From assembly GCA_030648055.1 (NCBI GenBank), contig JAUSHI010000009.1:176769-240768 (forward strand): DNA of 64,000 nucleotides, given 5' to 3'. The notes below the pieces were generated by a model. That model made no database searches, had not been told where the DNA came from, and was given only the letters and a program-made list of their open reading frames with translations. A program made the position numbers and the translations under genes. This document shows, piece by piece, positions 2,385 through 44,063 of the stretch (positions are counted from its first letter, which is position 1; the number at the start of each line of letters is the position of its first letter). Source of the DNA: a bacterium. GTDB lineage: Bacteria > Patescibacteriota > Minisyncoccia > Sungbacterales > SURF-37.

Positions 2385-2780
2385 TTATCCGCCGAAGAGC
2401 TCGGCGATCCTCCGAAGGTCGGCGGCGACGGCCTCATCCGCGGCGTTCATCGCCTTCAGGAGCGCGTTCTCCTGGCTAAGGCGGTCCATCTCGGAGAGAT
2501 TCGCGGCCATCTCTTCGTCCCGGTCGGTCGCATCCGATTCGTACACCTGGATCTCCTCGGCGACATCCTCTGCCACAACATTTTTGAACTTGAGGGCGCC
2601 ACAAACGACACCCATGACGACCTGCGCCTCGGCGCGGGTGGTGATGTAGTTCGCCGACGCCTTGGCCTCGGCCAGACCGAAGTGGTTCGGCTCCGGTCCT
2701 GTGTACATGAAGGTGCGCCACACCTTGCTCAGTGCCCAGAAGATGAGAATGGAGGTTAGTGCAATCAACAGCGTGCGCAT
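2385..2780 (-). CDS. Small Ala-rich protein with N-terminal signal/TM anchor, unknown function, in a GC-rich islet
   Basis: N-terminus MRTLLIALTSILIFWALSKVW. AAGGAGG lies 8 nt upstream of the ATG, with its own TTGACA-17-TACAAT promoter. The overlapping plus-strand ORF 2346-2759 lacks such signals. Confidence 0.6.
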   Translation of the reverse strand: MRTLLIALTSILIFWALSKVWRTFMYTGPEPNHFGLAEAKASANYITTRAEAQVVMGVVCGALKFKNVVAEDVAEEIQVYESDATDRDEEMAANLSEMDRLSQENALLKAMNAADEAVAADLRRIAELFGG

Positions 2781-2880
2781 CTGCTTGTTCCTCCTTAGGG
2801 ATGGTTTGGTGGGTGTTTATAAAAACTTCACCGGGAAGCCCATTTCTTGCCCGTTGAAGCGGTTTTCAAAGGTCAGAGCC

Positions 2881-2909
2881 ATTGTAGCACTATTATATAT
2901 TATTGTCAA
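2881..2909 (-). promoter_or_regulatory. sigma70-type promoter for ORF 2385-2780(-)
   Basis: Minus strand reads TTGACA-17 nt-TACAAT. Confidence 0.6.
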
Positions 2910-2975
2910 TATCTTTCATTTTCTTATTTTTTAACGCAAAATATATATAATTATGCCGGGTAATGAAAATTAAAT

Positions 2976-4264: not shown

Positions 4265-5626
4265 ATGAATGACGTAAATAAAATATTTGACGTGATGCGA
4301 AAAGAGATTGTTACAGTTATCGCAACCCTTTTTTTGGTGGTGGGCAGCGCTTTCTATTTCGGAGTAAAACAGTATTCTGTATACCAAGCAAAAAAAGGTG
4401 CAAAAGAAAAACAAATTCAGGAATTATTAATTACACAACAAAAAGCTCTAAAGGAGGCAAATCAAGAAATAGATATTTTAAAACAGCCCGCTACGAGATA
4501 TATTGGTTCACCAGCCGATATTTTAAAGAATAAGGCGCAAACACAGGCTGTTAGTAAAACTAATGCAGAAATAATTAAAAAAGTAAAGCCGGCTGTAGTT
4601 TACATTGAAACAGAGGATGGTTCTAGCGCTGGTAGCGGGATGATTATAGAATCGGCAGGTTTTATCCTCACCAATGCACATGTAGTACAAGGTGTTAATT
4701 CCGCTAAGATTAAACTTTCTGATAATAAGTCGTTTGTTGCAACAGTGATTGGTAGGGATGAAAATATAGATCTTGCAATTCTAAAAGTAGATGGAGGGGA
4801 TCTACCAACAGTCGAGCTCGGCAATTCTGATACCGCAGAACAGGGCGATGAAGTATTTACTCTTGGTTATCCTTTTGGTTTAGAGGGAGATGTGAGTTTT
4901 AAGGAAGGAACAATTTCGCGAAGAATTAGTGACGGAAGCACAACTTATTTGGAAACCTCGGCAGAAATTCATCCTGGAAATAGCGGGGGGCCACTCGTAA
5001 ACAGGCTTGGTAAAGTTATAGGTATAAACACAGCAATATTTGGGAAAAGCATAAAAGGAATTATTTTTGGAGAAAGCATCAAACTGGCAATTCCTATAAA
5101 TTCTGCAAAAAATGTAATTCCCGAATTAAAGTTAGGAAAAATAATAATCGGAAATCAATTACAACCGGAAACCAAGAAAGTCCTATCAGAAGAAGACGCA
5201 CGAGAGCAAAGAATTAGCGCTGTTATAACGAGAGCAAGAAGCTTACTAAGTGATATAGATAGCACTGTCAAAATTCTCTATACAAATATTGAATGGGTAA
5301 AATTAATAATAAACCAGCTTAATGCTTATAACTATCTATCCGGAAAAGCCGATAATGCCAAAATAAAAGAACTAAACGACTATTGGGTTAAAGACGCGAA
5401 TGGGACCATCAAGGCTCTTAATGATGAGTTAAGGCCGCTTGTGTTAAATGCAGTAAGCAGAGATTTTGTTAGTGACATTTATCATCCGTTGGGTTCGACT
5501 GAGAGCGATTTATACAGACAAGAGGCCGTGGTGAAAACTTATTGGACGAATGCCATAAATAAAAACGATGAATTCACTTCATTTTCTAAAGATTTAAGTG
5601 AGAGAATAAAAGTATGGCTTCAATAA
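4265..5626 (+). CDS. Membrane-anchored trypsin-like (S1C/HtrA-like) serine protease without PDZ, with an unknown C-terminal domain
   Basis: N-terminal TM segment. His (TNAHVV), Asp (DLAILKV) and Ser (GNSGGPLVN) catalytic motifs. Confidence 0.85.
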   Translation: MNDVNKIFDVMRKEIVTVIATLFLVVGSAFYFGVKQYSVYQAKKGAKEKQIQELLITQQKALKEANQEIDILKQPATRYIGSPADILKNKAQTQAVSKTNAEIIKKVKPAVVYIETEDGSSAGSGMIIESAGFILTNAHVVQGVNSAKIKLSDNKSFVATVIGRDENIDLAILKVDGGDLPTVELGNSDTAEQGDEVFTLGYPFGLEGDVSFKEGTISRRISDGSTTYLETSAEIHPGNSGGPLVNRLGKVIGINTAIFGKSIKGIIFGESIKLAIPINSAKNVIPELKLGKIIIGNQLQPETKKVLSEEDAREQRISAVITRARSLLSDIDSTVKILYTNIEWVKLIINQLNAYNYLSGKADNAKIKELNDYWVKDANGTIKALNDELRPLVLNAVSRDFVSDIYHPLGSTESDLYRQEAVVKTYWTNAINKNDEFTSFSKDLSERIKVWLQ

Positions 5627-6912: not shown

Positions 6913-7695
6913 ATGGAACAATTTCTTTGGCCTCTTAAGAGGTCATCTGTAAAAATTTCTCAGCACTTTGGGAGTATTTGGTCGGCTAATAGTTCTAAAA
7001 AGCATACAGGAATTGATATTGCAGCTGTTCCTGGAGATGCGGTATACGCAGCAGCGGCTGGAATGGTGACGAAAACGGGGATTCTTGATACTACGGGGGC
7101 GTGGGCAAAATACGTCGTGCTTGAGCACGAGACAAAAGACTATTGCACCTCTTATCTTCACATTGAACCGAAAGTGGCTATTGGTCAGAAGCTAAATGTA
7201 GGAGATTTTGTTGGAGTTATTGCAGACATTTCAGCGCCGCACTGTCATTTTAATGTGTGGAAGAGCGTCCACGATGATAAACTAACTCAACGAGGGGCAT
7301 TACCGATCGTGTGTGCGGCGGGAGGCGATCCGGTATTTCCCAATAATTTTGTTGACCCACTATCTTTTAGTTATCGGTATGTTGATAGTGATACAATTCC
7401 CCCCACACCGATTGTTCCTTTATTTATTCGTAACTTGGTTCTTAATGATTCAGGTACAGATGTAAGTTTACTTCAGATATTGCTTAACAAAGATCCAGAG
7501 ACGACAGTTGCTACTACCGGCCCTGGATCGCCTGGACGGGAGACCAATTATTTCGGCGACTTAACAGAGAAGGCCGTGCAGAAATTTCAGGTTAAGTACG
7601 GCATCGTTTCTTTGGGTGCGCCGGGTTATGGTTTAGTAGGTTCTCTAACGAGGACAAAGCTACAGGAACTTTTTGGAAATCACTTAAATACTTGA
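6913..7695 (+). CDS. M23 family metallopeptidase with C-terminal peptidoglycan-binding (PG_binding_1-like) domain, no signal peptide
   Basis: HTGIDIAA (HxxxD) and HCHFNV (HxH) motifs. C-terminal LLNKDPE..YFGDLTEKAVQKFQVKYGI. Confidence 0.85.
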   Translation: MEQFLWPLKRSSVKISQHFGSIWSANSSKKHTGIDIAAVPGDAVYAAAAGMVTKTGILDTTGAWAKYVVLEHETKDYCTSYLHIEPKVAIGQKLNVGDFVGVIADISAPHCHFNVWKSVHDDKLTQRGALPIVCAAGGDPVFPNNFVDPLSFSYRYVDSDTIPPTPIVPLFIRNLVLNDSGTDVSLLQILLNKDPETTVATTGPGSPGRETNYFGDLTEKAVQKFQVKYGIVSLGAPGYGLVGSLTRTKLQELFGNHLNT

Positions 7696-22510: not shown

Positions 22511-23122
22511 ATGAAGAAAATTCTTATTGCTACAAAAAATCCTGGGAAGATTCAGGAATATATGGAACTTTTGAAAGGCGAGCCGTTTGAATTTGTTACC
22601 CTTAATGATATTAAGATTACAATGTCGATTGATGAGGATGGAGAGACGATGGAGGAAAACGCGGTGAAAAAAGCAGTGCATTATGCTTATTTTTCCAATT
22701 TGCCCGCGCTTGCGGACGACGGAGGAATTGAGATTGAGGCGCTTAACGGAGAACCAGGAGTGAAGACCCGCCGCTGGCCGGGTTATGAGGCGACGGATGA
22801 GGAGCTTGTTGATATGGCACTTGAAAAAATGAAAGGCGTGCCGTGGGAGAAACGAAAAGCGCGCTTTCGTGTTTTGGTTGCCTTCGCTATTCCGAATGAA
22901 GAAAATGTTTGGGTGCGCGAAGGGGTTAAGGAAGGTTACATCACCGAGACTGCGACGCCGATTGTCCGGGGCTATCCCTTTCGTTCCATTTTTTGGTTTC
23001 CGGAAACAAAAAAGATGTGGGCCGAACATACTCCCGAAGAAGAAGACAAATTGGTGCTTCATCGCAAGCAAGCCGTTGAGCAATTGCTCCCGATTATTAA
23101 AAAAGAATTAGAAAAAGAGTAA
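22511..23122 (+). CDS. rdgB: Non-canonical purine NTP pyrophosphatase (RdgB/HAM1 family)
   Basis: MKKILIATKNPGKIQEY start and EENAVKKA..ALADDGGIEIEALNGEPGV motif. ATG 22511 is preferred over the longer track start. Confidence 0.85.
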   Translation: MKKILIATKNPGKIQEYMELLKGEPFEFVTLNDIKITMSIDEDGETMEENAVKKAVHYAYFSNLPALADDGGIEIEALNGEPGVKTRRWPGYEATDEELVDMALEKMKGVPWEKRKARFRVLVAFAIPNEENVWVREGVKEGYITETATPIVRGYPFRSIFWFPETKKMWAEHTPEEEDKLVLHRKQAVEQLLPIIKKELEKE

Positions 23123-24450
23123 TGCTAGATATAAAATTTATTCGGCAAAATAGGAAAGAGGTTGAAGAGAGTCTTAAAAATAAGGGGGTCCAAGTTAATC
23201 TTGGCCGGCTTTTGGAAGTGGACGAGAAGCGGAGAGAAAAAATTAAAGCGGTTGATGAACTTCGCGCTGGGCATAATCGCGACTCCGACGATATTATGAA
23301 GCTCAAAGGAGAAGAACGCGAGACGCGTATTAAGGAGGTAAAGGAGATGAAGGCAAAATTGGCTGACGTGGAGTTTGAATTAAAAGCGCTTGAAGAAGAG
23401 TTCCGCGATTTGATGTATAAACTCCCCAATGTCCCGTTTACAGAAGTGCCGGTTGGTAAGGATGGGGGAGATAACATAACGCTTCGCGAAGTCGGCAAAA
23501 AACCAAAGTTTGATTTTGCGTTTCTTGATTATATTGAGCTTGGAGAAAAGCTAGACCTTATAGATACTGCCCGGGCTTCAAAAGTTTCGGGTTCTAGGTT
23601 CGGATATCTTAAACATGAGGCACCTATTTTAGAGCTCGCTCTTTTGCAATTTGCCATGTCGTTTCTTGTTGATGAGGCAAATATCCGGGCGATTATAGAA
23701 GAAAAGGGCTTGAAAATTAAAGCAAAGCCATTCATTCCCGTAATTCCTCCCGTATTGGTGCGCCCTGAAGCAATGCGCGCTATGGGTTATATGGAACGCG
23801 GAGAGGACGAGATTTATCATCTTGAAAAAGATGACTTATATCTTGTCGGCACTTCCGAGCAATCTGTTGGGCCGATGCATCAGAACGAAATATTTGAGGA
23901 AGAAACTATGCCACATCGCCACATTGCGTTTTCAACTTGTTTTAGAAGAGAGGCCGGCTCCTATGGAAAGGATACTCGGGGAATATTAAGAGTGCATCAG
24001 TTTGATAAGGCAGAGATGTTTGTGTTTTCTACTCCAGAGACGTCCAAAGACGAACATCAGCTTCTTCTCGGCATAGAGGAGAAATTAATGTCGCTTCTCG
24101 GAATTCCTTATCGGGTTCTTGATATTTGCACCGGAGACCTTGGAGATCCCGCCGCGGCAAAGTATGACATAGAGGCGTGGCTTCCGGGGCAAAATGAAAA
24201 GAAGGGGGAATACCGCGAAACGCATTCAACATCCAACACGACCGATTTTCAGGCGCGCCGTTTAAACATTAAATACCGCGATTCAAAAACAAAAAAGAGC
24301 GGATATGTGCATATGCTTAACGGCACGGCGTTTGCCATGGGGCGGATGCTTATAGCAATTCTGGAAAATTACCAACAATCCGACGGTTCGGTGCGCGTGC
24401 CGGAAATTCTTCAACCCTACACTTTCGGAATTAAAGAAATTAAGCGCTAA
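23122..24450 (+). CDS. serS: Seryl-tRNA synthetase
   Basis: MLDIKFIRQN coiled-coil arm. Class II motifs FRREAGSYGKDTRGILRVHQF and GTAFAMGRMLIAILENYQ. Confidence 0.95.
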   Translation: MLDIKFIRQNRKEVEESLKNKGVQVNLGRLLEVDEKRREKIKAVDELRAGHNRDSDDIMKLKGEERETRIKEVKEMKAKLADVEFELKALEEEFRDLMYKLPNVPFTEVPVGKDGGDNITLREVGKKPKFDFAFLDYIELGEKLDLIDTARASKVSGSRFGYLKHEAPILELALLQFAMSFLVDEANIRAIIEEKGLKIKAKPFIPVIPPVLVRPEAMRAMGYMERGEDEIYHLEKDDLYLVGTSEQSVGPMHQNEIFEEETMPHRHIAFSTCFRREAGSYGKDTRGILRVHQFDKAEMFVFSTPETSKDEHQLLLGIEEKLMSLLGIPYRVLDICTGDLGDPAAAKYDIEAWLPGQNEKKGEYRETHSTSNTTDFQARRLNIKYRDSKTKKSGYVHMLNGTAFAMGRMLIAILENYQQSDGSVRVPEILQPYTFGIKEIKR

Positions 24451-24772
24451 AAAAATCGGTCCTGAGTAAGGGCTGGTTTTTGTAAATAACCATTAATGTT
24501 CTGTTTAGTGTATAATAAAGGGAGAGGGGCAAAACCCTCGGAAATTACAGGCATTCTTTAGGGTATATTTCTTAAAAAAGTAAACGGCAAGACCAAAGAA
24601 TTCCGGTAATCGCCCAAAAACCCCTCTCTTCTTATGAACGCGGGGTTTTATTGTAAAGAAGCGCTTGATATATTGTTGATAAGCAGTGGACAGAGGTTCC
24701 CCGCTTAAACAAAAATTGCAGATTACGAGCCGATTTTACCAGATTCATTGCAGTTATTTAGCAAAAGGGTGA

Positions 24773-25354
24773 ATGGCTCGGGGATTAACAAAAAGAATAC
24801 GGCAGGTCCGCAGAAAGTCATTCCCCGTAACATATTCAAAAATTGTGTTACGAGGTATGGCTTGGTGGACATCATTATTTCTTCATTTCGACTCCGGCAA
24901 AGTGCCGGGAGACGAAAAGAAAGAAGCGAACGCTTTGGTTCTATTAATTCGTGCCATAAGAAAAGCTTTTTACGAAAATTTAATTGATACTATTCATGTC
25001 GCCTTGCTTTTTGCAACTTATGCCTATTTTTTCTTAAGTGTCGCCGCGTTCTTATTTCAAAATATTTTTCCGCGCCAGATTCTTTATGTCGTGGACGCTT
25101 TTTCCGAACCGTATCTCGGCGTTCTGGGTATTTACGTGGTAGTTAATGAGATTCGCAAGCGCAGGGGGAGTGTCGCGCATCCTCATTTTGCCAGTATTTT
25201 TGCCGGAGTTTGGGCGGCGTTTCTTATCACCTCAACACTCATTGTGGTTTTGGGCGACACATATTATTTTAATGATATGTATCGTACCGTTGTGACCAAT
25301 TCTTTAGCCGCTCTTATTATTCGCGTCGGAGCGATTGTCAGTAAGGTGCCTTGA
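24773..25354 (+). CDS. Hypothetical polytopic membrane protein
   Basis: 193-aa ORF with 4-5 hydrophobic segments. No family recognised. Confidence 0.5.
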   Translation: MARGLTKRIRQVRRKSFPVTYSKIVLRGMAWWTSLFLHFDSGKVPGDEKKEANALVLLIRAIRKAFYENLIDTIHVALLFATYAYFFLSVAAFLFQNIFPRQILYVVDAFSEPYLGVLGIYVVVNEIRKRRGSVAHPHFASIFAGVWAAFLITSTLIVVLGDTYYFNDMYRTVVTNSLAALIIRVGAIVSKVP

Positions 25355-25401
25355 ATAAATTTAGAAAAAATAAAAACCCCCGCTTCTTGCGGGGTTTTTG
25401 G

Positions 25402-25794
25402 TTATTCTTTTTCCCATGGGAATACAACAAAGGCATCTGTTTTTTCGTGAAGCCAGATATCTGGAACTACTATGCTTTGCCTGTGGTAGTAAGGAGTTAC
25501 AATAACGCTTTTGTGGAATGGAGCGAGTGTTTTGCCTGTGTCAGCGATGTCGTCTGTGATGATAATTTTCTTTGCGAGGCTTAAAAATGCGAATATTACC
25601 ATTATCCATCTTGGCAAAGTAATAAGCGGAATTCCAAGTTCGTGCGAGATCATAACCGCGATAATCAGTCCGCCTCTTGGTGGACCCCACACTCCCTTAA
25701 ATTTAGTCGGGTGCGATTTTAAGGCCGGAATTATTCTTTCGTACATATCGGGAAGGAATTCTTTCCATGGGTAAAGGCGTTTTTTATTTTCCAT
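25402..25794 (-). CDS. Phosphoribosyltransferase (PRT type I) family protein
   Basis: PRPP-binding loop KKIIITDDIADTGKTL. The ATG at 25794 is preferred because the longer form overlaps the upstream gene. Confidence 0.75.
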   Translation of the reverse strand: MENKKRLYPWKEFLPDMYERIIPALKSHPTKFKGVWGPPRGGLIIAVMISHELGIPLITLPRWIMVIFAFLSLAKKIIITDDIADTGKTLAPFHKSVIVTPYYHRQSIVVPDIWLHEKTDAFVVFPWEKE

Positions 25795-25798
25795 CGCG

Positions 25799-26224
25799 TC
25801 ATCTCCCCAAGAAGTAGTTTGAGTAGCGGACAAAAAATACGATGTTATGGATTGCGACAAGAAAAAGCATGGCGCTAAATGTCCAGATGTATACTGATAA
25901 AATCCTTATGTAGCTTGAAATGAAGACTAAACACGCTATTACGGTGCTCAAAACGCCGAGCTTATAGAATATGAACAAAAACCAGCCCTTTTGCATCAGC
26001 TCTCGCATGAAAGGGTTACCTTCATGGTTGATTCCCATTTGGCTTACAACAAGTAACGTGGTTATATAGTCTAGAAAGTTAGCAAAAAATGCTATAAGGA
26101 ACAAAAGGCGCAAGTCGAAATTAGCAAACCGTGGGCATTTAAAATGGATTACGGCGAGAATCATTGCGAGAACTACGACCATTATGCTGAAGCCGTTACC
26201 TTGGTAAAAGTTGTCAGGGAGCAA
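25799..26224 (-). CDS. Small polytopic membrane protein (DUF5658-like)
   Basis: FANFLDYITT...GINHEGNPFMREL pattern and four TM segments. Confidence 0.55.
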   Translation of the reverse strand: MLPDNFYQGNGFSIMVVVLAMILAVIHFKCPRFANFDLRLLFLIAFFANFLDYITTLLVVSQMGINHEGNPFMRELMQKGWFLFIFYKLGVLSTVIACLVFISSYIRILSVYIWTFSAMLFLVAIHNIVFFVRYSNYFLGR

Positions 26225-26301
26225 TTCAAACCTCCTTAGCCCGTTTTGCGGGGCTTTTGAAAGTATCCGAATAATGTGTTAAAAATAATATATCACATTT
26301 T

Positions 26302-27447
26302 ATGGAAAAAAACAACCACCTTCGCACATGGATAGAAATAGATACGGCCGCCTTGGCCGCGAATTTTCGTCAGCTGCGCAATATTGTGAGCGCCAAGAAA
26401 AAAATAATGGCCGTAGTGAAGTCCAACGCGTATGGCCACGGAATTGTAGGTATCGCAAAAAGCTTAAGGAAGTCCGCGCCTTCTATATGGTTCGGGGTTG
26501 ATTCGTTGGTTGAAGGGCTACGGTTAAGGGAAGAGGGAATTAAGAGTCCGATTTTGGTTCTTGGTTCAACGCTCCCCACATTATTTATTGAGGCCGGGCG
26601 CCAAAAAATCTTTATAACTATTTCTAATTTTGAAGGCCTTGATGCTTTGTCAAAATTAAAAGTAAGGCCGGAGATTCATTTAAAAATTGACACAGGCATG
26701 CACCGACAGGGCTTTCTTCCTAAGGAGGTTGGAGTGGTAATTAAGCGGCTGAAAAAAAATAAAATTGTCCCGCGCGGAATTTATACGCATTTTGCATCAG
26801 CCAAAGACCGCGCTTATCCGACCGCGACTCTTGAACAGTTTGAGCTTTTTAAAAAAGTTACGCGCGGGTTTGAACGGGCCGGGTTTAAGGGCATGGTGTG
26901 TCATGCGGCGGCTTCAGGCGGGGCGCTTCTTTTTCCGGAAGCGCATTTGGATATGGTTAGAATCGGAATGGCGCTTTGGGGGCATTGGCCGTCAGATGAG
27001 GCGAAAATAAATGTATTGTCGGGGAGATTTAATTTGCCTAAAATTTCGTTAAAACCGGTTCTTTCGTGGAAGACGAGGGTTGCCGAAGTTAAAAAAATTC
27101 CCACCGGAGCTTTAGTTGGCTATGACCTGACTGAAAGAGTTGCACGCTTAAGCCAGATTGCCGTTTTGCCGGTTGGATATTGGCATGGTTTTGACAGGGG
27201 CCTTTCTTCGTCTGGACTTGTGTTGGTGGGGGGCAAAAGGGCGAAAGTGCTTGGCAGAGTTTCTATGGATATGATTGTGTGCGATGTTACTAATATTCCG
27301 GGGGTGAAAGTCGGCGATGTCGTCATACTTATAGGAAGACAGGGAAAAGAAGAAATAAGCGCGGAGGAAATTGCCAGAACGCTTAACACTTCACCCTATG
27401 AAGTATTGACACGAATTAATCCATTGATTGAGCGGATATATAAATAA
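26302..27447 (+). CDS. alr: Alanine racemase
   Basis: PLP-lysine motif AVVKSNAYGHG and C-terminal SMDMIVCDVT. Confidence 0.9.
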   Translation: MEKNNHLRTWIEIDTAALAANFRQLRNIVSAKKKIMAVVKSNAYGHGIVGIAKSLRKSAPSIWFGVDSLVEGLRLREEGIKSPILVLGSTLPTLFIEAGRQKIFITISNFEGLDALSKLKVRPEIHLKIDTGMHRQGFLPKEVGVVIKRLKKNKIVPRGIYTHFASAKDRAYPTATLEQFELFKKVTRGFERAGFKGMVCHAAASGGALLFPEAHLDMVRIGMALWGHWPSDEAKINVLSGRFNLPKISLKPVLSWKTRVAEVKKIPTGALVGYDLTERVARLSQIAVLPVGYWHGFDRGLSSSGLVLVGGKRAKVLGRVSMDMIVCDVTNIPGVKVGDVVILIGRQGKEEISAEEIARTLNTSPYEVLTRINPLIERIYK

Positions 27448-27674
27448 AGGGCTTTGTCCAAAATTGCGAGGCATATCGGCGAAGCAATTTTGGCAACAAA
27501 ACCTTTAGCCCTCCCCAGTTTTATAATGGAGTCAAAAAATTAATTATATAATACTAATTAGTAATATCTTCTGTTATTTCGGGCTTGAATATAAAACTGG
27601 GGAGGGATGCTCAATGTTGTAGCTAAATTTATTTCGCTTGCATTGGGCTCGCTCATAATTTAGACAACATTGGC

Positions 27675-28556
27675 ATGCAAGAGCAGTTTCGGAAAAGTAA
27701 AATTCTCTATACCGGTGAAGCCGTTAATACGAAAGCTAAAAAGCGTTTTTCATTAAAATTATTTTTTATTATATTCGCGGTAATTCTTTCGGTCTCCGTT
27801 GTTGCTGGTGTTTTTTATGCGTTGCGTCTGCCGAGACTCCGCATTCAGGAAATTAGCATAGTGGGCGCGAAATCCATTTTGGAAGATGATATTAGTTCCT
27901 TGGCGCTTAGCGATATTAGTGGAAGCAGCTTTTATTTAATACCTAAGGATAGTTATTTCTTTGTGCGTTTATCTCGGATAGAAAATCTAATTAAAAATAA
28001 ATTTTTGAGAATCGTGGAAGTAAGGGCGCAAAAAACTTTTAAGTCGGCGCTTAATATTGTGGTTACCGAACGCGATATTTGGGGGATGGGCTGTATTAAA
28101 ACAGAAATCAAAGAAGTTGCGGGAATAGCGTCAAAACAAGAAAGTATTAAAAAAACCGGCCCTTGTTTTTATATTGATAAGACCGGTTTTGCGTTTGAGG
28201 ATGTCTCCTCGTTTGAGGGCGGGCTCTTGCCGGTTGTTTATACTGATGGCGAGGGCACACTCGGCTCTTCCATCATACAAAGCTCCAATGTGGCTTTTTT
28301 TGAGGAGGCCGCGAAAACCTTAGAATCATCACTTCAACTGCCTTTACTTTCTGTAGAAATTTCTTCTAAAAATTCTGATGATGTACGCCTGAATTTAAAA
28401 GAGGGCTGGTCGCTTATTGTTCTCCGCAATAAGCCAAGTTCAAATTGGATAAGCTTTTTAAAAACACTCCTTGACGGAGAAATAAAAGATAAACGCGCCG
28501 GTCTTGATTATGTGGACCTGCGCTTTGGCAATAAAGTGTTTTATAAATATAGGTGA
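27675..28556 (+). CDS. ftsQ: Cell division protein FtsQ/DivIB-like (POTRA)
   Basis: Basic N-terminus, single TM, then POTRA-like RIQEISIVGAKSI. C-terminal YVDLRFGNKVFYK. Confidence 0.7.
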   Translation: MQEQFRKSKILYTGEAVNTKAKKRFSLKLFFIIFAVILSVSVVAGVFYALRLPRLRIQEISIVGAKSILEDDISSLALSDISGSSFYLIPKDSYFFVRLSRIENLIKNKFLRIVEVRAQKTFKSALNIVVTERDIWGMGCIKTEIKEVAGIASKQESIKKTGPCFYIDKTGFAFEDVSSFEGGLLPVVYTDGEGTLGSSIIQSSNVAFFEEAAKTLESSLQLPLLSVEISSKNSDDVRLNLKEGWSLIVLRNKPSSNWISFLKTLLDGEIKDKRAGLDYVDLRFGNKVFYKYR

Positions 28557-28564
28557 GCATTATC

Positions 28565-28615
28565 AAATGTTCCGGGTAGCAAGCGGTCGTTTGCTATTTG
28601 GAACATTTATTTTTG
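28565..28615 (+). terminator. Intrinsic terminator after ftsQ
   Basis: AAATGTTCC..CAAGCGGTCGTTTG..GGAACATTT followed by ATTTTT. Confidence 0.7.
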
Positions 28616-28650
28616 AGAATTTTTGTGAAAATGAAAGGCACGAGCTTGTG

Positions 28651-28686
28651 CAGTTTCGGGAACAAAGTTTTTATAAATTCCGATGA
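28651..28686 (+). pseudogene. Possible diverged duplicate of the ftsQ 3' end
   Basis: QFREQSFYKFR* compared with RFGNKVFYKYR*. It is followed by a second hairpin sharing the CAAGCGGTCG[T/C]TTG core. The similarity is weak. Confidence 0.35.
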
Positions 28687-28692
28687 ATTTTA

Positions 28693-28739
28693 ATATCCAA
28701 CTAACAAGCGGTCGCTTGTTAGTTGGATATTTGATTTTA
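28693..28739 (+). terminator. Second strong intrinsic terminator hairpin
   Basis: ATATCCAACTAACAAGC-GGTC-GCTTGTTAGTTGGATAT followed by TTGATTTTATT. Confidence 0.7.
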
Positions 28740-28780
28740 TTAATAGGAAAGGTGCAAGATATTTTTGAGAAAACTAAATA

Positions 28781-29571
28781 AAAAAATTAGCCCGAGCATC
28801 TTTACGCGAAAGGTCGCGTAAAAGTGCTCGGGCACCCCGATTTAGGGGATTTGGAGTCCGTTGGGTATCGGTCCCATCTTTCGGGCCCCTTTTCTTCGGC
28901 ATGCGTTGCCAACATGTAGGCGTCACATGCGGCAACGGCTTCACATTCCACGCGGAATGCTGAATTCCGGATGATGAGCCTGGAACGGTCCGGGTCAAGT
29001 CCAGAACGCGTGCATGGAACTGTATCTGACAAGAGCGAGCAAGCCCCCATCCTATTTGGGGGGCTGGCGGAGTCCGTCAGGTGTCGATCCTGTTCATTCG
29101 GGCTCCTCTTCTGGGCGTGTAGGCCTCATCTCCATGCGGAATGCTGAATTCCAATTCCGGGGGATTCGGAATCCCATTCGGATCGGAACGCGTGCATGGA
29201 GATAGAATCCGGACACGGAGGGGTGTTTGATGCACGTCGGCCTGGCCGCGACTTTTACAAAGTCGGCATCAAACCATCTCCGTCTCCGTGTCCGGAAGCC
29301 TTTGGTGGTGGAGCCGTGTTATGCAAGCTCGGTTCCGTTTTTTGGTTTAACGGAACCCTTGGCACAACCACCTTGTTGTTGAAGGAGCAATGGCTTTTCC
29401 CGAGGCTCCGCGATAGCCTATCGCGGAGCCTCGGGCAGGAAGAAGCTCCCAACCGGGAGCTAACCTCGGAAGTACCGGGAGGGTTACCTTACACCCTCAA
29501 CCGGCCTTCCTACTAACCTGACCACACATACTCTCGGATACCCGAGAGCATGTGTGGATTTTTACATTACT
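28781..29571 (-). ncRNA. Large (~0.8 kb) GC-rich highly structured RNA candidate of unknown family with tandemly duplicated internal domain
   Basis: A perfect minus-strand promoter lies just upstream. A 20-bp hairpin plus a T7 run on minus closes the far end. Perfect helices of 13-17 bp occur throughout. Only unconvincing ORFs are present, and they occur on both strands. The strand call rests on the promoter and terminator; base-pair (G.U) evidence is mixed. Confidence 0.6.
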
Positions 29572-29577
29572 ATGATC

Positions 29578-29605
29578 ATTATATCAAATCTAGTAATTAT
29601 GTCAA
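29578..29605 (-). promoter_or_regulatory. Consensus sigma70 promoter driving the structured RNA
   Basis: Minus strand reads TTGACA-16 nt-TATAAT. Confidence 0.7.
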
Positions 29606-29682
29606 GTTTTTGAGGAGTAATAAAAGCAACCTTAAAAGGCCACTTTTCTACTCATGTTTAAGCTTATTTTAGAGCTGGCCGT

Positions 29683-31554
29683 TTAAGGCAATTGATATAT
29701 AAATATTGATTTTCCGGTTCGCGCTACTGGCTGGTAGTTCTTAAGCCATTCATATGAATCTTCGGGTTTTTGTACAAAACCCGGTACCGGCTTGCCTAGG
29801 GCGCTCATCTGAAATGTTGACGATATGGCAAACCAACCGTGCGCCGGTCCTTTTGCCGACCACCACGGTTCAAATTTATTGCCAAGATAATATTTGGGAC
29901 TGCCGCCGCCGAAATAATCCACGGCTATTTTTTTGATGCCATTTTTTTCGGTAAATTCTTTAAGCCGTTTTAAGTCCTGTCCCCAGTCATAGTTTGAATC
30001 AACCGCGTACTTGTAGCCGTTGTCGGTTCCTCCAGCAAGTTCATTGTAATAAGAAAGGAAATGCGGATAAGTCACGATGGTGTCGGCGATGAGCCAGACA
30101 AGAAGGACGCCGAGTAGCAGATATTTTGGAACGGATTTAATGTAAAGCTCGTAAATATTTTTAATCCATCCGTGCCATGTTCTGGGGTCGGCATTTTTCA
30201 CATTACTTAGCCATCCGGAAAGGCCTTTTGATACCAAAAGATAAATAAAGGTAAACGTCGGCAAGAGATGTCTTACGCCTATGTTTAGGGGCGCCCTCAT
30301 GCTGTAGCCCCAATAAAATATGATGAATACCCACGCTGAAACCGTAATATAATTTCCACGCATCCAGCTGAAAGTTTTTTCAATTGATTTTTGCCTTACG
30401 CGCAGTATTTTTCGCGCGGCAAATATGAGCGCAATTAGCGATAGGATATGGAACGCGAGCGGTTCTTTCAGGAGGTACATGGTCGGGAAATAAAGGCGCG
30501 AACCGCCCGAGCTTACCTCTCCCAGGAAATAATTAGTGTTGCCCCCCGCCACTCTTTGCACCACCATGAGGATGCCCATAAAATATTGGCCGAGCGGACG
30601 GAAGACGGGCTGTTTAATCATCCATAGGTCAATATTTACAAGTTGGCGGTTGCCGAATGAGCTTAAAGTATATTCCGCGTCGTGAAGCTGACGCTCTGGA
30701 GGATAGTTCCATACGTGATAGCCGTATACCGCCCAAATTAAAATTGTGCCGATGAGGCCGATTAGAATTGTTTTGCCGGCAAGTTTTGTGAAAAGACGCA
30801 GTTTTTCATTCAAGTCGGCATTTTGCACTATTACCCACATAACGAGCAGAATGGCATATATCGGTAGCAGGAGAAAAAGAGAAAACTTGAGAAGTTCGGC
30901 AACACCGAAGAGAAGTCCTGTGATGAGCATATTTTTCCGTGTGGGGGATTCAAGAAAAGAAATAAAAGAGACAATGCCGATGAAAAAGGCAAATGCCGCG
31001 GCGAGATCCGTAGTAACGAACCGCGAGTGGGCGATAAATGTCGGCGAGAAAGCGTAAAAGGTAAGGGCAAGAATCGCGGCAAGATAGCCGAAATTTTTCT
31101 TGGTCCACCTGAAAAAAAGCCAGCCGAATAAAAGTGCTAAGAGCATTTCGGGTAGCCGCATCCAAAAAAGAATACTGTCCGGATTATTTCCAGATTCATA
31201 GAGGAATATTTCTCCTTGAGTCCATTGGCCGTTTATGTCTTCCCTCCATGCTTTTGTGTCTGTGGGGAAATTTAGTCCCAGAAAGAGCGCGGGGACGGCG
31301 GCGAGGTCTTTTATCAGCGGCGGGTGTTCGGGATTGAGGCGGTAATCTTTTTGGGTGAGGTAGGAGTATCCCGCCGGAATATGAGCAAGTTCGTCCATTA
31401 TCGCCGAGTCCCCGATGGAGGAAAAAACCATTAACAAAGCCATGACTCCGAGAATAGCAAACGCAAGGTAATTTGTTCGTTCTGGTTTGTCGGTGATTAT
31501 TTTGGAGTTCGCTTCGTAGGTATGTTCTTCTGCGTTGTTTTTTTTAAAATTCAT
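29683..31554 (-). CDS. GT39/GT83-type (PMT/ArnT-like) membrane glycosyltransferase
   Basis: 623 aa with more than 10 TM segments. First-loop DE motif (AIMDELAHIPAGY). Confidence 0.85.
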   Translation of the reverse strand: MNFKKNNAEEHTYEANSKIITDKPERTNYLAFAILGVMALLMVFSSIGDSAIMDELAHIPAGYSYLTQKDYRLNPEHPPLIKDLAAVPALFLGLNFPTDTKAWREDINGQWTQGEIFLYESGNNPDSILFWMRLPEMLLALLFGWLFFRWTKKNFGYLAAILALTFYAFSPTFIAHSRFVTTDLAAAFAFFIGIVSFISFLESPTRKNMLITGLLFGVAELLKFSLFLLLPIYAILLVMWVIVQNADLNEKLRLFTKLAGKTILIGLIGTILIWAVYGYHVWNYPPERQLHDAEYTLSSFGNRQLVNIDLWMIKQPVFRPLGQYFMGILMVVQRVAGGNTNYFLGEVSSGGSRLYFPTMYLLKEPLAFHILSLIALIFAARKILRVRQKSIEKTFSWMRGNYITVSAWVFIIFYWGYSMRAPLNIGVRHLLPTFTFIYLLVSKGLSGWLSNVKNADPRTWHGWIKNIYELYIKSVPKYLLLGVLLVWLIADTIVTYPHFLSYYNELAGGTDNGYKYAVDSNYDWGQDLKRLKEFTEKNGIKKIAVDYFGGGSPKYYLGNKFEPWWSAKGPAHGWFAISSTFQMSALGKPVPGFVQKPEDSYEWLKNYQPVARTGKSIFIYQLP

Positions 31555-31757
31555 AAAAATGTTCTTTAGTTGTTTTATTTATAAAGAAAAAATAAAATAG
31601 CAATCATATAATAAATTTAACGATGATTTATTTTCTAATACTTTTGGTAGTTTTTGTCGTATTGGATGCGTTTTATGCCGTTATGGCAAATAATCCCAAG
31701 GATGGCGACGAAGATAACGGCTTTTTGTAATGGTCGCGAATTAGCCGTTTTTGGTCT

Positions 31758-33455
31758 TTAGTGGGATTCAAACGAAATAAAATCCCCGGGCGCGCTCGGT
31801 TTTAATTCAGGAAAGCGTTTTTTGATTTCTTGAATGAGTGTTTTGTCTCCAGAATTTAAAAGCAATATGGCGGTTTTTTCTTTTTGTCCGATTGCCAGCC
31901 CGTCAAGCGTGGTCAGGTATTTAACATTTTTAGCGCGCCTCTTTTCTTCGGAAAATGTGTCGCTTATAAACATGGGCGTCTGGGCCGGTGCGGGTAGGCC
32001 GCGGATCAGATTGCCATTGAGGTTCACTATTATTATTTTTTTGGTTTCTTTAGGGAGCCCATTTATGTATTCGCCTATATGGGTAAGGTCGGTTGAGAAG
32101 GCGTAATAAGTATTAATATTATTCGCGAAACGCAAAAAGTATGTTTGCCACGCGTTGAAAGCGATAAATAAAAGTAACAGGGCTAAAAGCAGGGCTGCTT
32201 CTTTTTTTAAGCGGTTTAATTGGCGCCGATAGACTTCCCATTTCGGATTTTCGGATGCGCGGTTAATATAATCGCGCACACTTGTCCAAAGATATTCCGC
32301 ACCCCATCCGGCCAAAATAAATACGGGAACAATAAGGCCGATGGAACGAAGCGCGTGGGGCAGACCTTCGCGGGTGAGGGTCGCGGGAAGGAGCATGAAG
32401 AAAAGCCATATTAAAATAGTCCATGCGGCGAGTTTTTCATCCGAGTCTTCATTTTCTTTTTGTTTATTTTTAAAGAAGGCCCTTTTTATGGCAAGAACGA
32501 GGCCTATGGCAAAAAATATGGCGACCGGCCAGAAAAGCTCCGGCTGGCAGGCGAAATTATGCCTCGGATTGCAGTCGCCCCGCCAGAAAAACATCTGCGT
32601 TGTAAGGCCGTTTGATTTTACGAATTCAAATAAAGGGTTTGCCGCGGAAAAAATAGAAACCTGCTCGCTTCTTCCAAGAAAATCTTGCGGATTTTGGAGA
32701 AAATAATATCCGATTGGCAGAGCAACGACGAAAGCGACAAAAATAAAGAGCGTGATGGCGCACGGCGCGCAAGATTTTTTAGCTGTGCCATTAGTGTCCA
32801 CCGTAACGGTATTTGGTCTCCACCACCGCCAAAAATAAATCGCGAGGGGGAGGGCAACCACAAATGGCATGAAGCGGAACGCAATATAGGTATGAAGGCC
32901 GAGACCGAAAAAAATTCCCGCGAATACCAAATCGCTGATTTTGCTTTTACGGAGTCCTTTAAGCAGAAAATATATTCCGAACGCGGAGAAGAACGGCACA
33001 GAAATAGCTCGGAAGCCGATTCGTGAGAAATTAATATGCCAAAAACTTGTTGCCAGAAAAAAAGATGCAAAAAGTGCTACGAGTGTCGCGCGCCTTGGTT
33101 TGTCCCTAAAAAGCTCACGCGCCAAAAGATAGACGCCGAAAATTGTGAGCGAGCCGAAAAGCGCGGAAACGACGCGAAGTGTCCAGGCGTGTTGTCCTAA
33201 TAGCCACAGCGAGAGCGCCTGTATATTTATGAATAGCCCCTCACGGCCGTTGTTTTCCGGATAGAAAATTTTCCAGCCCAGGACTGGTCCGCCTTTGGCG
33301 GAAAAATCGGTATTATAAAGCGCCTCAACGGCATTGTTGCCGTTTGTGGCCTCGTCCGGATATAAGCCGGGCGGCGTTTGGTTAATCAGATAAAAACGAA
33401 AAAAAACACCGAGTGCCAGAATCATGATTATTAAGATAACCTCTCGCCGCTTCAT
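31758..33455 (-). CDS. GT39/GT83-type (PMT/ArnT-like) membrane glycosyltransferase, second paralog
   Basis: 565 aa, polytopic. First-loop PPGLYPDEATNG DE motif. Confidence 0.85.
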   Translation of the reverse strand: MKRREVILIIMILALGVFFRFYLINQTPPGLYPDEATNGNNAVEALYNTDFSAKGGPVLGWKIFYPENNGREGLFINIQALSLWLLGQHAWTLRVVSALFGSLTIFGVYLLARELFRDKPRRATLVALFASFFLATSFWHINFSRIGFRAISVPFFSAFGIYFLLKGLRKSKISDLVFAGIFFGLGLHTYIAFRFMPFVVALPLAIYFWRWWRPNTVTVDTNGTAKKSCAPCAITLFIFVAFVVALPIGYYFLQNPQDFLGRSEQVSIFSAANPLFEFVKSNGLTTQMFFWRGDCNPRHNFACQPELFWPVAIFFAIGLVLAIKRAFFKNKQKENEDSDEKLAAWTILIWLFFMLLPATLTREGLPHALRSIGLIVPVFILAGWGAEYLWTSVRDYINRASENPKWEVYRRQLNRLKKEAALLLALLLLFIAFNAWQTYFLRFANNINTYYAFSTDLTHIGEYINGLPKETKKIIIVNLNGNLIRGLPAPAQTPMFISDTFSEEKRRAKNVKYLTTLDGLAIGQKEKTAILLLNSGDKTLIQEIKKRFPELKPSAPGDFISFESH

Positions 33456-33482
33456 TATTAATGTATTATACTATATATAGGT

Positions 33483-33690
33483 CAGGTAGTGAAAATTCGA
33501 CTGGGTGAAAAGCGTTTGAATAGCTTTTCACGGGTTTTGCGAGAAGTCGCCGCAGGCGACCTCGCAGCAATAAACCCGGGACGCATGGGCGGCAAATCAC
33601 TAGTCGAATAATATCTGGAGGTAACACGTGGAGTATCGCAACTCCGATGATACAAAAGTATTAATATTTAAGTCGAATTTCTACTACCTG
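33483..33690 (+). promoter_or_regulatory. Family-1 leader element B (composite): same closing arms as element A, with the conserved structured module inside
   Basis: CAGGTAGTGAAAATTCGAC pairs with GTCGAATTTCTACTACCTG, which ends 2 nt before ATG 33693. The module is at 33503-33580. Confidence 0.7.
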
Positions 33691-33692
33691 GT

Positions 33693-34109
33693 ATGGCTGA
33701 AGATTCAAAAACACCAGAAAACGCGCTTCCGGAAGAGATAAAGGAACTTGAGCGTATGCTTGAAGAAAAAAAACGAACGCTGGCCGAGAGAGGCGAAGAG
33801 TTGGAGCACAAGGAGGTTTTTAAACAAGCGTTTTTGGAAAAATATAAAGAGGTCATGCCTCCTGCTTTGCCGCCTTCTCCTGCTCCGAGTGCTCCTGCTC
33901 CAATGGCAAAAGCGGGTGATATGGTACAGGGAAAAGCCGAAGAAGAACTGCAATCTCTTATCAGGCTTGCCTTTGAAAAAGGAATTCGTTCGGCGATTGA
34001 TAAAGCAAAGCGCGAGAGCCCGTGGCTTTTGGATGAGCTTCACGATCGGCTTATTGACGAATATTATCAAAAATTAGTTCAGGCAAAACAAATTAAGGAA
34101 TCTTCATGA
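33693..34109 (+). CDS. Hypothetical acidic coiled-coil protein with Pro/Ala-rich linker
   Basis: 138-aa ORF with a 4-nt overlap with the next gene. No family recognised. Confidence 0.55.
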   Translation: MAEDSKTPENALPEEIKELERMLEEKKRTLAERGEELEHKEVFKQAFLEKYKEVMPPALPPSPAPSAPAPMAKAGDMVQGKAEEELQSLIRLAFEKGIRSAIDKAKRESPWLLDELHDRLIDEYYQKLVQAKQIKESS

Positions 34110-36529
34110 TTTCCGATTCAACGCTCTTTTATCTGTACATTGTCGCCGTTTTTGCGGCATTGGTTTTTGGTTTATCTTTTTGGATTTTACGGCGTGGCCG
34201 TTCAAAGAAAGACATATCGCGTTCTTTCAATTTAAAACTTTTTCAGGTTGTCTTACCCAAAGCAAGCCCCAAAGAGCCGCTTTCTCTTGACCAGACCCGT
34301 GAAAGAATCGCGATTATGGAAAAGTTATACGGCCATCTAAAAGAGGCCGTGCCTAAGGGCTGGTTTTGGAGGGTTGAGCCCACATTTGCCTTTGAGCTGA
34401 CCGTGCCGCATATTGGTGAGGAAATTATTTTTTATGTTGCTGTCCCCAAAATCCTTTCGCAATCAATTTCTAAAATTATTGAGGGCGTCTTTCCCGATGC
34501 CCAAGTTACTCCGGCGCGTGATTACAATATTTTTAATCCGGATGGTACTGCCGTTGGAGCGGTTCTGAATCTTGGAAAAAATGATTTTTTGCCCATCCGC
34601 ACTTATCGGACTCTTGAGGCTGATCCTCTGGGTGCTCTCTCTAACGCTTTTTCAAAATTAGCCGGCGAGGGCGAGGGTGCTGTGTTTCAAATAGTGGTTC
34701 GTCCTGCTCCCGATAAATTTTCAAAGGAAATTTTTTCTTTCGCGAAAAAAGTTTTTAGCCGCGGCAGTTTTGAAAAGCCCGGAGCCTTCTCCGAGGTAAT
34801 GGGCGAACTTTTCGGCTCTTCTTCACCCAAAAAAGAAACAAAAGAAGAGCCGCGGGCCCGCGCGCTAACTCCCAAAGAGGAGGAAATGGTTAAAGCTATT
34901 GAAAACAAAGGTTCCAAGCCGCTTTTTGAGGCGAATATTCGCTTGATTGCTTCGGCCGCTTCCGAAGCAAGGGCCTTTGAGATTTTGAAAAATATAGAAA
35001 CCACCTTTTTGCAATTTGAAGACCCCGCGCTAAATAAATTTGTAACCGAGGAAGTAAAAGGTGCGGTTCTGAAAAATCTTTTTTACCAGTTTTCGTTCAG
35101 GATGTTTAATGAATCAAACGCTATGATTTTGGGCTCGGAAGAGCTGACTTCGCTTTTGCACTTTCCTAATGTTCCACTGGAAACCCCCAAAGTAAAAACA
35201 TTGAAATCCAAAGAAGCCCCACCTCCGGCAAATCTTCCCCGCGCTGGGCTCGCTCTCGGTTACAGTCTTTTTCGTGGAGAAGAAACAACGGTGCGAATTA
35301 CTCCGGAGGACAGGAGAAGGCATTTTTATATAATCGGGCAGACCGGCACCGGAAAAACCGCGTTTATGGAAAATATGATCAGGCAGGATATTGAGGCTGG
35401 AAAGGGTGTCTGCTTCATTGACCCGCACGGAGATACGGTTGAGAAAATTCTCGGGCTTATTCCGCCCCATCGTCTTGACGACGTAATTTATTTCAATCCG
35501 GGTGATACCGCGCACCCCATGGGATTAAATATGCTGGAATATGACCCGCGCTATCCAGAACAAAAAACTTTCGTGGTCAATGAATTATTTTCAATTTTTC
35601 AAAAGCTTTATGGCGCCGTTCCGGAATCAATGGGGCCGATGTTTGAACAGTATTTCAGAAACGCTACGATGCTGGTTATGGACGACCCGTCTTCCGGGAA
35701 TACTTTGCTTGAAATTTCGCGCGTGATGTCGGATAAGGAATTCCGCGATTATAAAATTTCAAAAGCCACGAATGTCGTGGTGAAAAATTTCTGGACACAG
35801 GTTGCTGAAAAAGCGGGGGGCGAAGGCGAGCTTAAAAACATGGTGCCTTATATCACTTCCAAGTTTGACGTGTTTTTGGCGAACGAAATCATGCGGCCGA
35901 TTATCGCGCAGGAAAAGTCCGCGTTTAATTTCCGCGAGGTGATGGATAATCAGAAAATTCTTCTCATCAATCTTTCAAAAGGCCGCCTTGGAGATCTCAA
36001 TTCTTCTCTCATCGGCTTGATTATGGTCGGCAAAATTCTTATGGCCGCTCTTTCGCGCGTTGATATTGCCGATCAGGAGGCGAGAAAGGATTTTTATCTC
36101 TACATTGATGAGTTCCAAAACATAACAACAAAATCAATTTCCACGATTCTTTCCGAGGCGCGGAAATACCGCCTTGACCTTGTCATTGCTCATCAGTTTA
36201 TAGGCCAGCTTGAGGAGGACATTAAAAAAGCGGTTTTCGGAAACGTCGGTTCCATGGTTTCTTTCCGAATTGGTTCGGATGACGCTGAATTTATTTCAAA
36301 ACAATTCATGCCCGTATTCGGTCCCGAAGACCTCTTGAATGTTGATAATTATAATGCTTTCATAAAATTACTTATTAATGGGCAGACCTCGCGTCCATTC
36401 AATATCCGTACTTACGCTCCGGTTTCCGCGAATATGCAGATTGCCGAGACGGTGAAAAACATGTCCCAGCAGAAATACAGCAGAGAGCGTGAAGAAGTGG
36501 AAAGAGAGGTAATGAGCCGCTATCGTTAA
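34106..36529 (+). CDS. Membrane-anchored P-loop ATPase, type IV secretion coupling protein-like (VirD4/TraD/TraG-type)
   Basis: N-terminal TM, Walker A IIGQTGTGKT and Walker B FYLYIDEFQNI, followed by RKYRLDLVIAHQ. Confidence 0.7.
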   Translation: MISDSTLFYLYIVAVFAALVFGLSFWILRRGRSKKDISRSFNLKLFQVVLPKASPKEPLSLDQTRERIAIMEKLYGHLKEAVPKGWFWRVEPTFAFELTVPHIGEEIIFYVAVPKILSQSISKIIEGVFPDAQVTPARDYNIFNPDGTAVGAVLNLGKNDFLPIRTYRTLEADPLGALSNAFSKLAGEGEGAVFQIVVRPAPDKFSKEIFSFAKKVFSRGSFEKPGAFSEVMGELFGSSSPKKETKEEPRARALTPKEEEMVKAIENKGSKPLFEANIRLIASAASEARAFEILKNIETTFLQFEDPALNKFVTEEVKGAVLKNLFYQFSFRMFNESNAMILGSEELTSLLHFPNVPLETPKVKTLKSKEAPPPANLPRAGLALGYSLFRGEETTVRITPEDRRRHFYIIGQTGTGKTAFMENMIRQDIEAGKGVCFIDPHGDTVEKILGLIPPHRLDDVIYFNPGDTAHPMGLNMLEYDPRYPEQKTFVVNELFSIFQKLYGAVPESMGPMFEQYFRNATMLVMDDPSSGNTLLEISRVMSDKEFRDYKISKATNVVVKNFWTQVAEKAGGEGELKNMVPYITSKFDVFLANEIMRPIIAQEKSAFNFREVMDNQKILLINLSKGRLGDLNSSLIGLIMVGKILMAALSRVDIADQEARKDFYLYIDEFQNITTKSISTILSEARKYRLDLVIAHQFIGQLEEDIKKAVFGNVGSMVSFRIGSDDAEFISKQFMPVFGPEDLLNVDNYNAFIKLLINGQTSRPFNIRTYAPVSANMQIAETVKNMSQQKYSREREEVEREVMSRYR

Positions 36530-44037: not shown

Positions 44038-44063
44038 GAGAGTGAGGAGAAAGAGGGTTTTGT

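Follow-up and report, generated by a model that had tools for sequence, protein, structure and literature searches.

Among the large structured non-coding RNAs (ncRNAs) of bacteria, GOLLD and ROOL usually lie beside tRNA genes or within prophages, and GOLLD has a variable half beside a conserved half; the raiA motif RNA is single-domain and widespread in Firmicutes and Actinobacteria. Here we analyse a 64,000-nt stretch of contig JAUSHI010000009.1 from a member of the Sungbacterales (the window), in which a G+C-rich block between the 3' ends of ftsQ (plus strand) and a PMT_2 (GT39-type) glycosyltransferase gene (minus strand) holds a putative RNA unit read from the minus strand (29571-28780). 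It is well supported that this unit is an orthologous, structure-constrained ncRNA gene outside Rfam, and one that is independently transcribed to judge from its signals. We further consider it somewhat probable that it specifies a stand-alone, probably abundant RNA of about 790 nt, belonging to an uncatalogued Sungbacteria-restricted family, which would act in trans as a multivalent platform of folding modules. The RNA is new at the level of the family, which is limited to Sungbacteria as far as sampled, and in kind it ranks with the other large structured ncRNAs of bacteria whose function is unknown.

Like GOLLD, ROOL and OLE, the window RNA is a stand-alone RNA of several hundred nucleotides with many helices, rich in G+C relative to its genome, patchily distributed and with a function that is not evident from context; the variable and conserved halves of GOLLD add to the likeness. 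Membership in these classes, which the size and architecture of the RNA had called to mind in an earlier annotation made from the DNA letters alone (the sequence-only reading), was not borne out: in covariance-model scans, for which we used Rfam 15, neither the window region nor the homologs described below matched GOLLD, ROOL, OLE, raiA or HEARO. The context also departs from that of GOLLD and ROOL, as the neighbours are ftsQ, alr and two PMT_2 glycosyltransferase genes (Pfam scan of the genes in 23122-36529), the nearest tRNA gene found by ARAGORN lies at 44063, and neither blastn against phage and plasmid records nor viral scans returned any similarity. Further differences are the host clade, Patescibacteria, and the conservation of modules of ~40-150 nt in varying order, with no global architecture. 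GOLLD, ROOL and OLE are reported to self-assemble into RNA-only cages (10.1101/2024.12.08.627333). Thus, of the earlier proposal of a large ornate ncRNA, the stand-alone, ORF-less and densely paired character and the duplicated domain hold, and the idea of one conserved giant fold is not supported, as only the promoter, the terminator and modules of the above size are kept over eight lineages; the layout looks like beads on a string rather than one global fold. With raiA the RNA shares a domain of ~200 nt, conserved junctions and unknown function, and differs in that its domain is tandemly duplicated, embedded in a modular transcript and devoid of an Rfam match. The raiA RNA is itself reported to be highly abundant (PMC12968392).

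Windowed composition confirmed that the block is richer in G+C than its surroundings, with 0.53-0.575 over 28800-29499 compared with flanks of 0.31-0.39 and a value of 0.436 for the 64-kb window, the island as a whole (28780-29605) reaching up to 0.58. The perfect promoter and the hairpin terminator recognized by the sequence-only reading are both present on the minus strand (Table 1). Transcription would start at ~29571; the terminator arms, of 20 nt each, are 90% complementary, and the end of the seven-nucleotide U-run could be refined to ~28780. The RNA is probably highly expressed. The ftsQ gene is convergent with the unit, and no co-oriented ORF lies downstream of it.

Folding of the ~797-nt minus-strand transcript gave a minimum free energy (MFE) of -369 kcal/mol with z = -11.4, none of 20 dinucleotide shuffles being as stable; since the plus strand of the region is nearly as stable (z = -10.3), folding energy alone cannot choose the strand. 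All helices named earlier were recovered (29522-29557, 29399-29435, 29208-29220/29284-29296, AGCTCCC/GGGAGCT, GGTTCCGTT/AACGGAACC and CGTTGCC/GGCAACG), the second with arms of 18 nt that are 100% complementary where 17 bp had been given. The diverged tandem copies that had been noticed are likewise real; they show 75% column identity, and their bounds are now placed at 29203-29062 and 29021-28848. Both of these paralogous copies of what we term domain R contain the blocks TCCAYGCGGAATGCTGAATTCC, GAACGCGTGCATGGA, GGAGTCCGT and TTCGGGC and keep identical unpaired blocks, and insertions sit at helix tips. A small hairpin within them differs by compensatory changes as originally claimed, with CAGG/CCUG in one copy and UGGG/CCCA in the other.

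The FtsQ-like and PMT_2 proteins of the window agree at 100% identity with those of a groundwater MAG (locus tag Q7R91_02990, on a 245-kb contig). To look for homologs we fetched contigs of relatives via FtsQ and PMT_2 homologs (labelled L002-L019), which belong to Candidatus Sungbacteria / Sungiibacteriota (Patescibacteria). Eight lineages were compared, namely the window, L002, L003, L005, L008, L010, L011 and L015, with L015-L019 being identical copies from five samples. Searches of the RNA region with blastn and nhmmer against the first relatives gave no match, and homology was revealed only through synteny and models, which yielded homologs with compensatory changes in domain R and its sub-module M2. 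The same order recurs in the seven further lineages: PMT_2 terminator, promoter, G+C-rich RNA, intrinsic terminator and convergent ftsQ. In seven of the eight the unit is flanked by the PMT_2 gene and ftsQ; in L002 a cluster of two-component sensor and ABC-binding genes is inserted after the PMT_2 genes, so that its end stands in the place of the PMT_2 terminator, and the RNA still adjoins ftsQ. A GGCT..AGCC-TTTTT terminator is found in all the relatives where the window has the hairpin 3' of the PMT_2 stop. TTGACA and a -10 hexamer (TATAAT; TATACT in L011) occur at the same position in 8/8 lineages, with a partly common spacer (GATTTG ahead of the -10), and by sequence reading the terminators are strong in all eight. 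The seven units that were folded (all but that of L015) span 274-959 nt, with a G+C of 0.54-0.59 and z between -3.6 and -12.2.

The RNA bodies are mosaic, and long stretches alignable by blastn exist only within the pairs L002/L003 and L008/L010. The latter pair has a common 5' domain (GGUGGACGRCCCGGCG...CCGGGWGACGAGG..., at ~3600-3900 in L008 and ~6920-7110 in L010) that is absent from the window RNA and could be a further conserved module. The syntenic L005 unit (2610-3590, minus strand) is a G+C-rich 959-nt unit with z = -9.7 and the same promoter type, in which no window module was detected. A scan of a genome collection with the pattern TGCAYGCGT...GGRATTMAGCA...GCRYGG returned the L002 contig alone; this pattern being narrow, the scan bounds the distribution weakly. 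A metagenome scan with the PMT_2 protein gave one uninformative locus of 1.4 kb.

Domain R, of ~145 nt, is present in two copies in the window and one each in L002 and L003, and also in L015. In the window, L002 and L003 its blocks run in the order P1 UCCRUGC/GCRYGGA, GCAYGCGU, P3 hairpin, AUUMAGCA, GGAUGA, a P4 hairpin of variable length, CAUGCCAGAGGAG and P5/P6, and across four copies RNAalifold detected compensatory changes in P1, P3, P5 and P6. Read on the minus strand, the domain contains several G-U pairs, of which one is kept unchanged in 4/4 copies; on the plus strand they would be A-C mismatches, which agrees with the minus-strand promoter and terminator. A model trained on L002 and L003 only had a single significant match in 243 kb, namely copy A of the window (29203-29063, 21.1 bits, E 8e-4), and a model trained without L015 found the full-length domain in L015 (20.9 bits, E 3e-5, filters off).

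The 3' sub-module of domain R, M2, has the layout P5b - RAWGAN - NNGG - RYCNAYR - CCNN - R - P5b'. A descriptor scan returned 10 matches, amounting to five distinct instances, all in these RNAs, and none in 20 shuffles of 221 kb. In a hand-registered alignment 97% of the cells are paired and double changes occur at 5/8 pairs, a level of covariation that was reached by 0/500 shuffles; slid controls were 35-46% paired. Another module, M1, has the base UUCCG...CGGAA or CGGAUUC, which on reading the sequences also occurs in L002, L003, L010, L011 and L015; L010 has two copies, each preceded by CAACAAC. The order is M1-R-R in the window, M1-R in L002/L003 and R...M1 in L015, and this variation between lineages fits autonomous modules. 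The unit thus shows the generic features of a stand-alone structured ncRNA gene: promoter, terminator, no conserved ORF, more structure than expected and homologs with compensatory changes.

The M2 hairpin is comparable with the T-loop modules of T-box stem I, RNase P and the 23S L1 stalk, in that its 5'-side internal loop RAWGA lies 4 bp below a 7-nt apical loop. T-box stem I forms interdigitated T-loops through a bulge-plus-distal-loop layout, which the M2 bulge recalls. The apical loop itself, N-U/C-C-N-A-Y-R closed by GG/CC (GG-AUCGACA-CC and variants), resembles the tRNA T-arm at the level of sequence. In the interdigitated motif two pentanucleotide T-loops intercalate, and it is used to recognise the tRNA elbow (PMC4810234). 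Unlike these systems, the window RNA matches none of the T-box, RNase P and rRNA models and has no specifier or antiterminator element. The M2 hairpins (29074-29112, 28858-28895 and those of L002, L003 and L015) also hold an SD-like (Shine-Dalgarno-like) (A)GGAG with an AUG 5-7 nt on, which opens mini-ORFs that vary in frame and in size, some being 6 or 11 aa and others much longer. On hand inspection we rejected these as translated frames, because frames and stops differ between copies and the GGAG pairs with CUCC; the elements are probably structural, and may be a mimic of a ribosome-binding site.

Table 1. Features of the RNA unit and its immediate surroundings (window coordinates)
Feature	Coordinates	Strand	Basis
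Hairpin 3' of the upstream PMT_2 stop, 13-nt arms, then UUGCUUUUAUU	29630..29688	-	inverted repeat; splits the PMT_2 gene from the RNA promoter
Sigma-70-type promoter TTGACA-16-TATAAT, extended -10 TG	29578..29605	-	12/12 consensus matches
H1: 5'-proximal 16-bp hairpin, 16-nt arms 94% complementary	29522..29557	-	fold and inverted repeat; no counterpart found in relatives
H2 and H3: adjoining hairpins including AGCUCCC/GGGAGCU	29439..29510	-	MFE and centroid folds; lineage-specific
H4: perfect 18-bp palindromic hairpin, arms 100% complementary	29399..29435	-	inverted repeat and fold
H5: stem around GGUUCCGUU/AACGGAACC (29331-29357)	29304..29372	-	sequence and fold
M1: closed by 13-bp stem UCCGGACACGGAG/CUCCGUGUCCGGA (29208-29220 with 29284-29296, 100% complementary), base UUCCG...CGGAUUC	29208..29296	-	inverted repeat and fold
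Domain R copy A: P1, P2/P3, short P4, P5/P6	29062..29203	-	duplication, models
M2 hairpin in copy A: CCG-AAUGAA-CAGG-AUCGACA-CCUG-A-CGG	29074..29101	-	descriptor scan, covariation
Spacer hairpin separating the R copies, GCCAGCCCCC...GGGGGCUUGC	29039..29068	-	inverted repeat and fold
Domain R copy B: enlarged P3, inserted P4 hairpin CGUUGCC...GGCAACG	28848..29021	-	duplication, models
M2 hairpin in copy B: CCG-AAAGA-UGGG-ACCGAUA-CCCA-A-CGG	28858..28884	-	descriptor scan, covariation
Small hairpin CCCC-UAAAUC-GGGG directly upstream of the terminator	28835..28848	-	sequence and fold
Intrinsic terminator: 20-bp hairpin (28790-28833), then UAA, then U7 (28786-28780)	28780..28833	-	inverted repeat

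Known RNA families were sought throughout. At the gathering score the whole window gave only one tRNA-Gln, and 28600-29750, scanned permissively at E<=10, gave chance hairpin matches to miRNA models alone. The relatives' sequences had no match at the gathering score (L002-L005) and none of relevance at E<=1 (L003, L005, L015) or E<=0.1 (L008, L010, L011). ARAGORN found no tmRNA. RNase P, tmRNA, SRP and 6S RNAs are essential and universally present; no model for any of them matched, and the unit is missing from two relatives (L004 and L013). Group I and group II introns were set aside, there being no match to a catalytic-core model and the unit being intergenic with its own promoter. The absence of a known-RNA signature reported by the sequence-only reading therefore stands. 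Our literature search found no description of a large ncRNA of Patescibacteria, and neither it nor the Rfam 15 matches yielded a structured ncRNA class for the superphylum. A replication terminus or dif site was also considered and dropped, as the cumulative GC skew climbs smoothly across the region.

Coding evidence is as poor as had been stated. The listed ORFs do exist (28774-28998 minus, 28802-29050 minus, 29014-29205 plus, 29196-29516 plus and 29255-29452 minus), yet none of eight internal ORFs has a Pfam match and neither of the two that were searched has real homologs. The 106-aa ORF on the plus strand (29196-29516), antisense to the RNA, matched only itself among 5.8 billion proteins, in the form of a called protein (P0186) on an 11.9-kb Logan contig, which is probably a spurious gene call. 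For an 82-aa ORF a search of 1.84 billion representatives gave one weak match (E 2.8e-5, 27% identity) to six stretches of an 853-aa protein, which we read as spurious.

Under the reading that we favour, the RNA would be a string of independently folding, stem-closed modules comprising lineage-specific 5' hairpins, M1 and two tandem R domains (~145-175 nt), in which the domain R stems covary and the junction nucleotides and the 7-nt T-loop-like loop of M2 are kept. Each domain R could adopt a compact tertiary fold and hold a single partner molecule, be it a protein or an RNA (tRNA, for example). Valency would be tuned as modules are duplicated, lost and reshuffled, and the long near-perfect stems would give stability and possibly processing sites. 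Acting in trans, the RNA would serve as a multivalent scaffold or platform for binding. Action in trans is suggested by the lack of a co-oriented downstream gene and by terminators about twice as stable as the alternative pairings, and a multivalent platform in place of one global fold by the combination of autonomous stem-closed modules, variable order, an old duplication that keeps unpaired nucleotides and insertions at helix tips. A dedicated promoter and terminator, repeated modules and quick sequence turnover are shared with the CsrB/RsmZ sponges and fit the idea of a multivalent decoy; the modules of the window RNA are, however, large multi-helix folds and not simple GGA loops. There are 23 GGA motifs (14.1 +/- 3.3 in shuffles), of which 1/23 is unpaired, and tblastn over the window and the loci fetched from relatives found no CsrA gene. 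With so few exposed motifs and no CsrA in that sequence, a Csr-type sponge is unsupported. A bolder proposal, which we regard as rather unlikely, would make domain R with M2 a novel functional fold that captures tRNA or protein, serves as an aptamer or self-assembles. The locus would then represent the first class of large ncRNAs that shuffle modules and are specific to CPR/Patescibacteria, with its valency tuned by tandem duplication.

Several observations weigh against the trans-acting platform. The start site, the abundance and any processing are deduced from the DNA letters, and the T-loop identity of M2 is a lead drawn from resemblance. There are 4-5 independent sequences per module, which makes the covariation statistics thin, and they are inflated by relatedness. 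Model searches found no domain R in L005, L008 or L010, and model R2 none in L011. The unit is absent from L004, where only 50 nt separate ftsQ from the PMT_2 gene, and from L013, where 190 nt hold terminators alone although the PMT_2 protein is 69% identical to that of the window; the RNA is therefore dispensable. Finally, no counterpart of the 5' half (29577-29300) was detectable in the sampled relatives, and its near-perfect palindromes could be recent, neutral or selfish insertions.

Some of these points feed the best surviving alternative, which we nevertheless think unlikely: the spacer downstream of ftsQ would be a hot spot in which G+C-rich palindromic modules insert, duplicate and decay, being non-functional or selfish, with a chance promoter and a fold that is a by-product of the palindromes. 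The patchy presence, the perfect palindromes of 13-18 bp, the module shuffling and the tandem duplication are all in keeping with this, as is the extreme turnover, best seen in L008, which has the closest PMT_2 protein (75% identity) yet a wholly different RNA body of 274 nt. Against it, 8/8 lineages retain the consensus promoter together with a strong terminator, and R and M2 persist, showing compensatory changes and unchanged unpaired nucleotides, between lineages with FtsQ just ~46% identical and in both old paralogs. Moreover, no module copy was found elsewhere in the 64-kb window, which disposes of a dispersed REP/MITE-like repeat there, or in ~150 kb of the relatives' sequence, so that nothing points to a family of dispersed repeats. 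Retention of 0.3-1 kb of non-coding DNA would also be unusual in such reduced genomes.

More doubtful still is regulation in cis, in which domain R would be a ligand-sensing aptamer controlling the adjoining terminator, with read-through RNA antisense to the convergent ftsQ-alr. Domain R has the size of an aptamer and junction nucleotides that are conserved, in the window, L002 and L003 it immediately precedes the terminator, ftsQ converges on the unit, and the hairpins that terminate ftsQ have no U-run in the minus direction. However, the terminators look constitutive: the arm-to-arm duplex of the window terminator is worth -32.4 kcal/mol and the best competing pairing upstream -16.6, and in L003 the values are -22.5 and -13.4. 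In addition, domain R is near the 5' end and far from the terminator in L015, and the four lineages in which model searches show no such domain keep the unit all the same. A riboswitch or other cis-regulatory leader was rejected, there being no co-oriented downstream ORF (the next gene, ftsQ, is convergent) and no competitive antiterminator pairing found.

Processing into several small RNAs (sRNAs), for instance guide-type or regulatory ones cut out at long perfect stems or A/U-rich linkers, appears improbable. It would suit the beads-on-a-string layout, the perfect stems of 13-20 bp, which could be RNase III substrates, and the A/U-rich linkers, and a precedent exists in the tandem stem-loop guide arrays of the TIGR systems (Tas/Nop-associated), known from phages and parasitic bacteria (PMC12045711). 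Like those arrays the window RNA has tandem variable palindromic stem-loops ending in a terminator, but its units are not regular repeats, it has no box C/D-flanked spacers of 8-12 nt, and its hairpin loops of 3-8 nt are too small for dual spacers. Nor was a Nop/Tas, Cas, TnpB/IscB, IS110 recombinase or reverse-transcriptase gene found among the Pfam-scanned neighbours or in the relatives' gene lists. A TIGR array is thus ruled out by gene context and geometry, and HEARO/omega RNA, bridge RNA and retron identities were rejected for want of an adjoining effector gene. A divergent member of a known RNA family, or a protein-coding region, which the size and G+C richness (like those of housekeeping or ornate RNAs) and the overlapping ORFs might suggest, is very improbable in view of the scans and ORF searches above and of the unit's dispensability in two relatives.

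A few observations concern the wider surroundings. Two tandem terminator hairpins follow ftsQ (28565-28608 and 28692-28731) and have an identical apex, CAAGCGGTCGYTTG, which occurs just these two times in the window against 0.06 expected by chance; the same hairpin, in the form CAACTAACAAGCGGTCGCTTGTTAGTTG, is kept 3' of ftsQ in L010 (~7465-7505). On the other side, the neighbourhood conserved between the window (33693-36529), L003, L010 and L015 comprises a pair of PMT_2 glycosyltransferases, a protein of ~138 aa that lacks a Pfam match and a TrwB/TraG-like (DUF8128) ATPase of ~800 aa. The 300 nt of highest G+C in the window (0.64) belong to a 131-aa ORF (2385-2780, minus strand) with no Pfam match, an AAGGAGG Shine-Dalgarno sequence and a signal-peptide-like N-terminus, which may be a horizontally acquired small secreted protein. 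The Sungbacteria contig JACPMF010000005 (L002) has an Avd / 23S-rRNA-IVP-like gene (181-567) between rpoB and rpoC and a GIY-YIG gene (4318-4578) just after rpoC.

Patescibacteria have genomes of ~1 Mb with little spare DNA, and the Sungbacteria lineage keeps a non-coding gene of 0.3-1 kb under a consensus promoter despite this small genome size. The compact and conserved domain R of ~145 nt suits structural and biochemical work. A large RNA that gains, loses, duplicates and reorders folded modules at a fixed locus would represent a natural flexible-scaffold RNA in bacteria.

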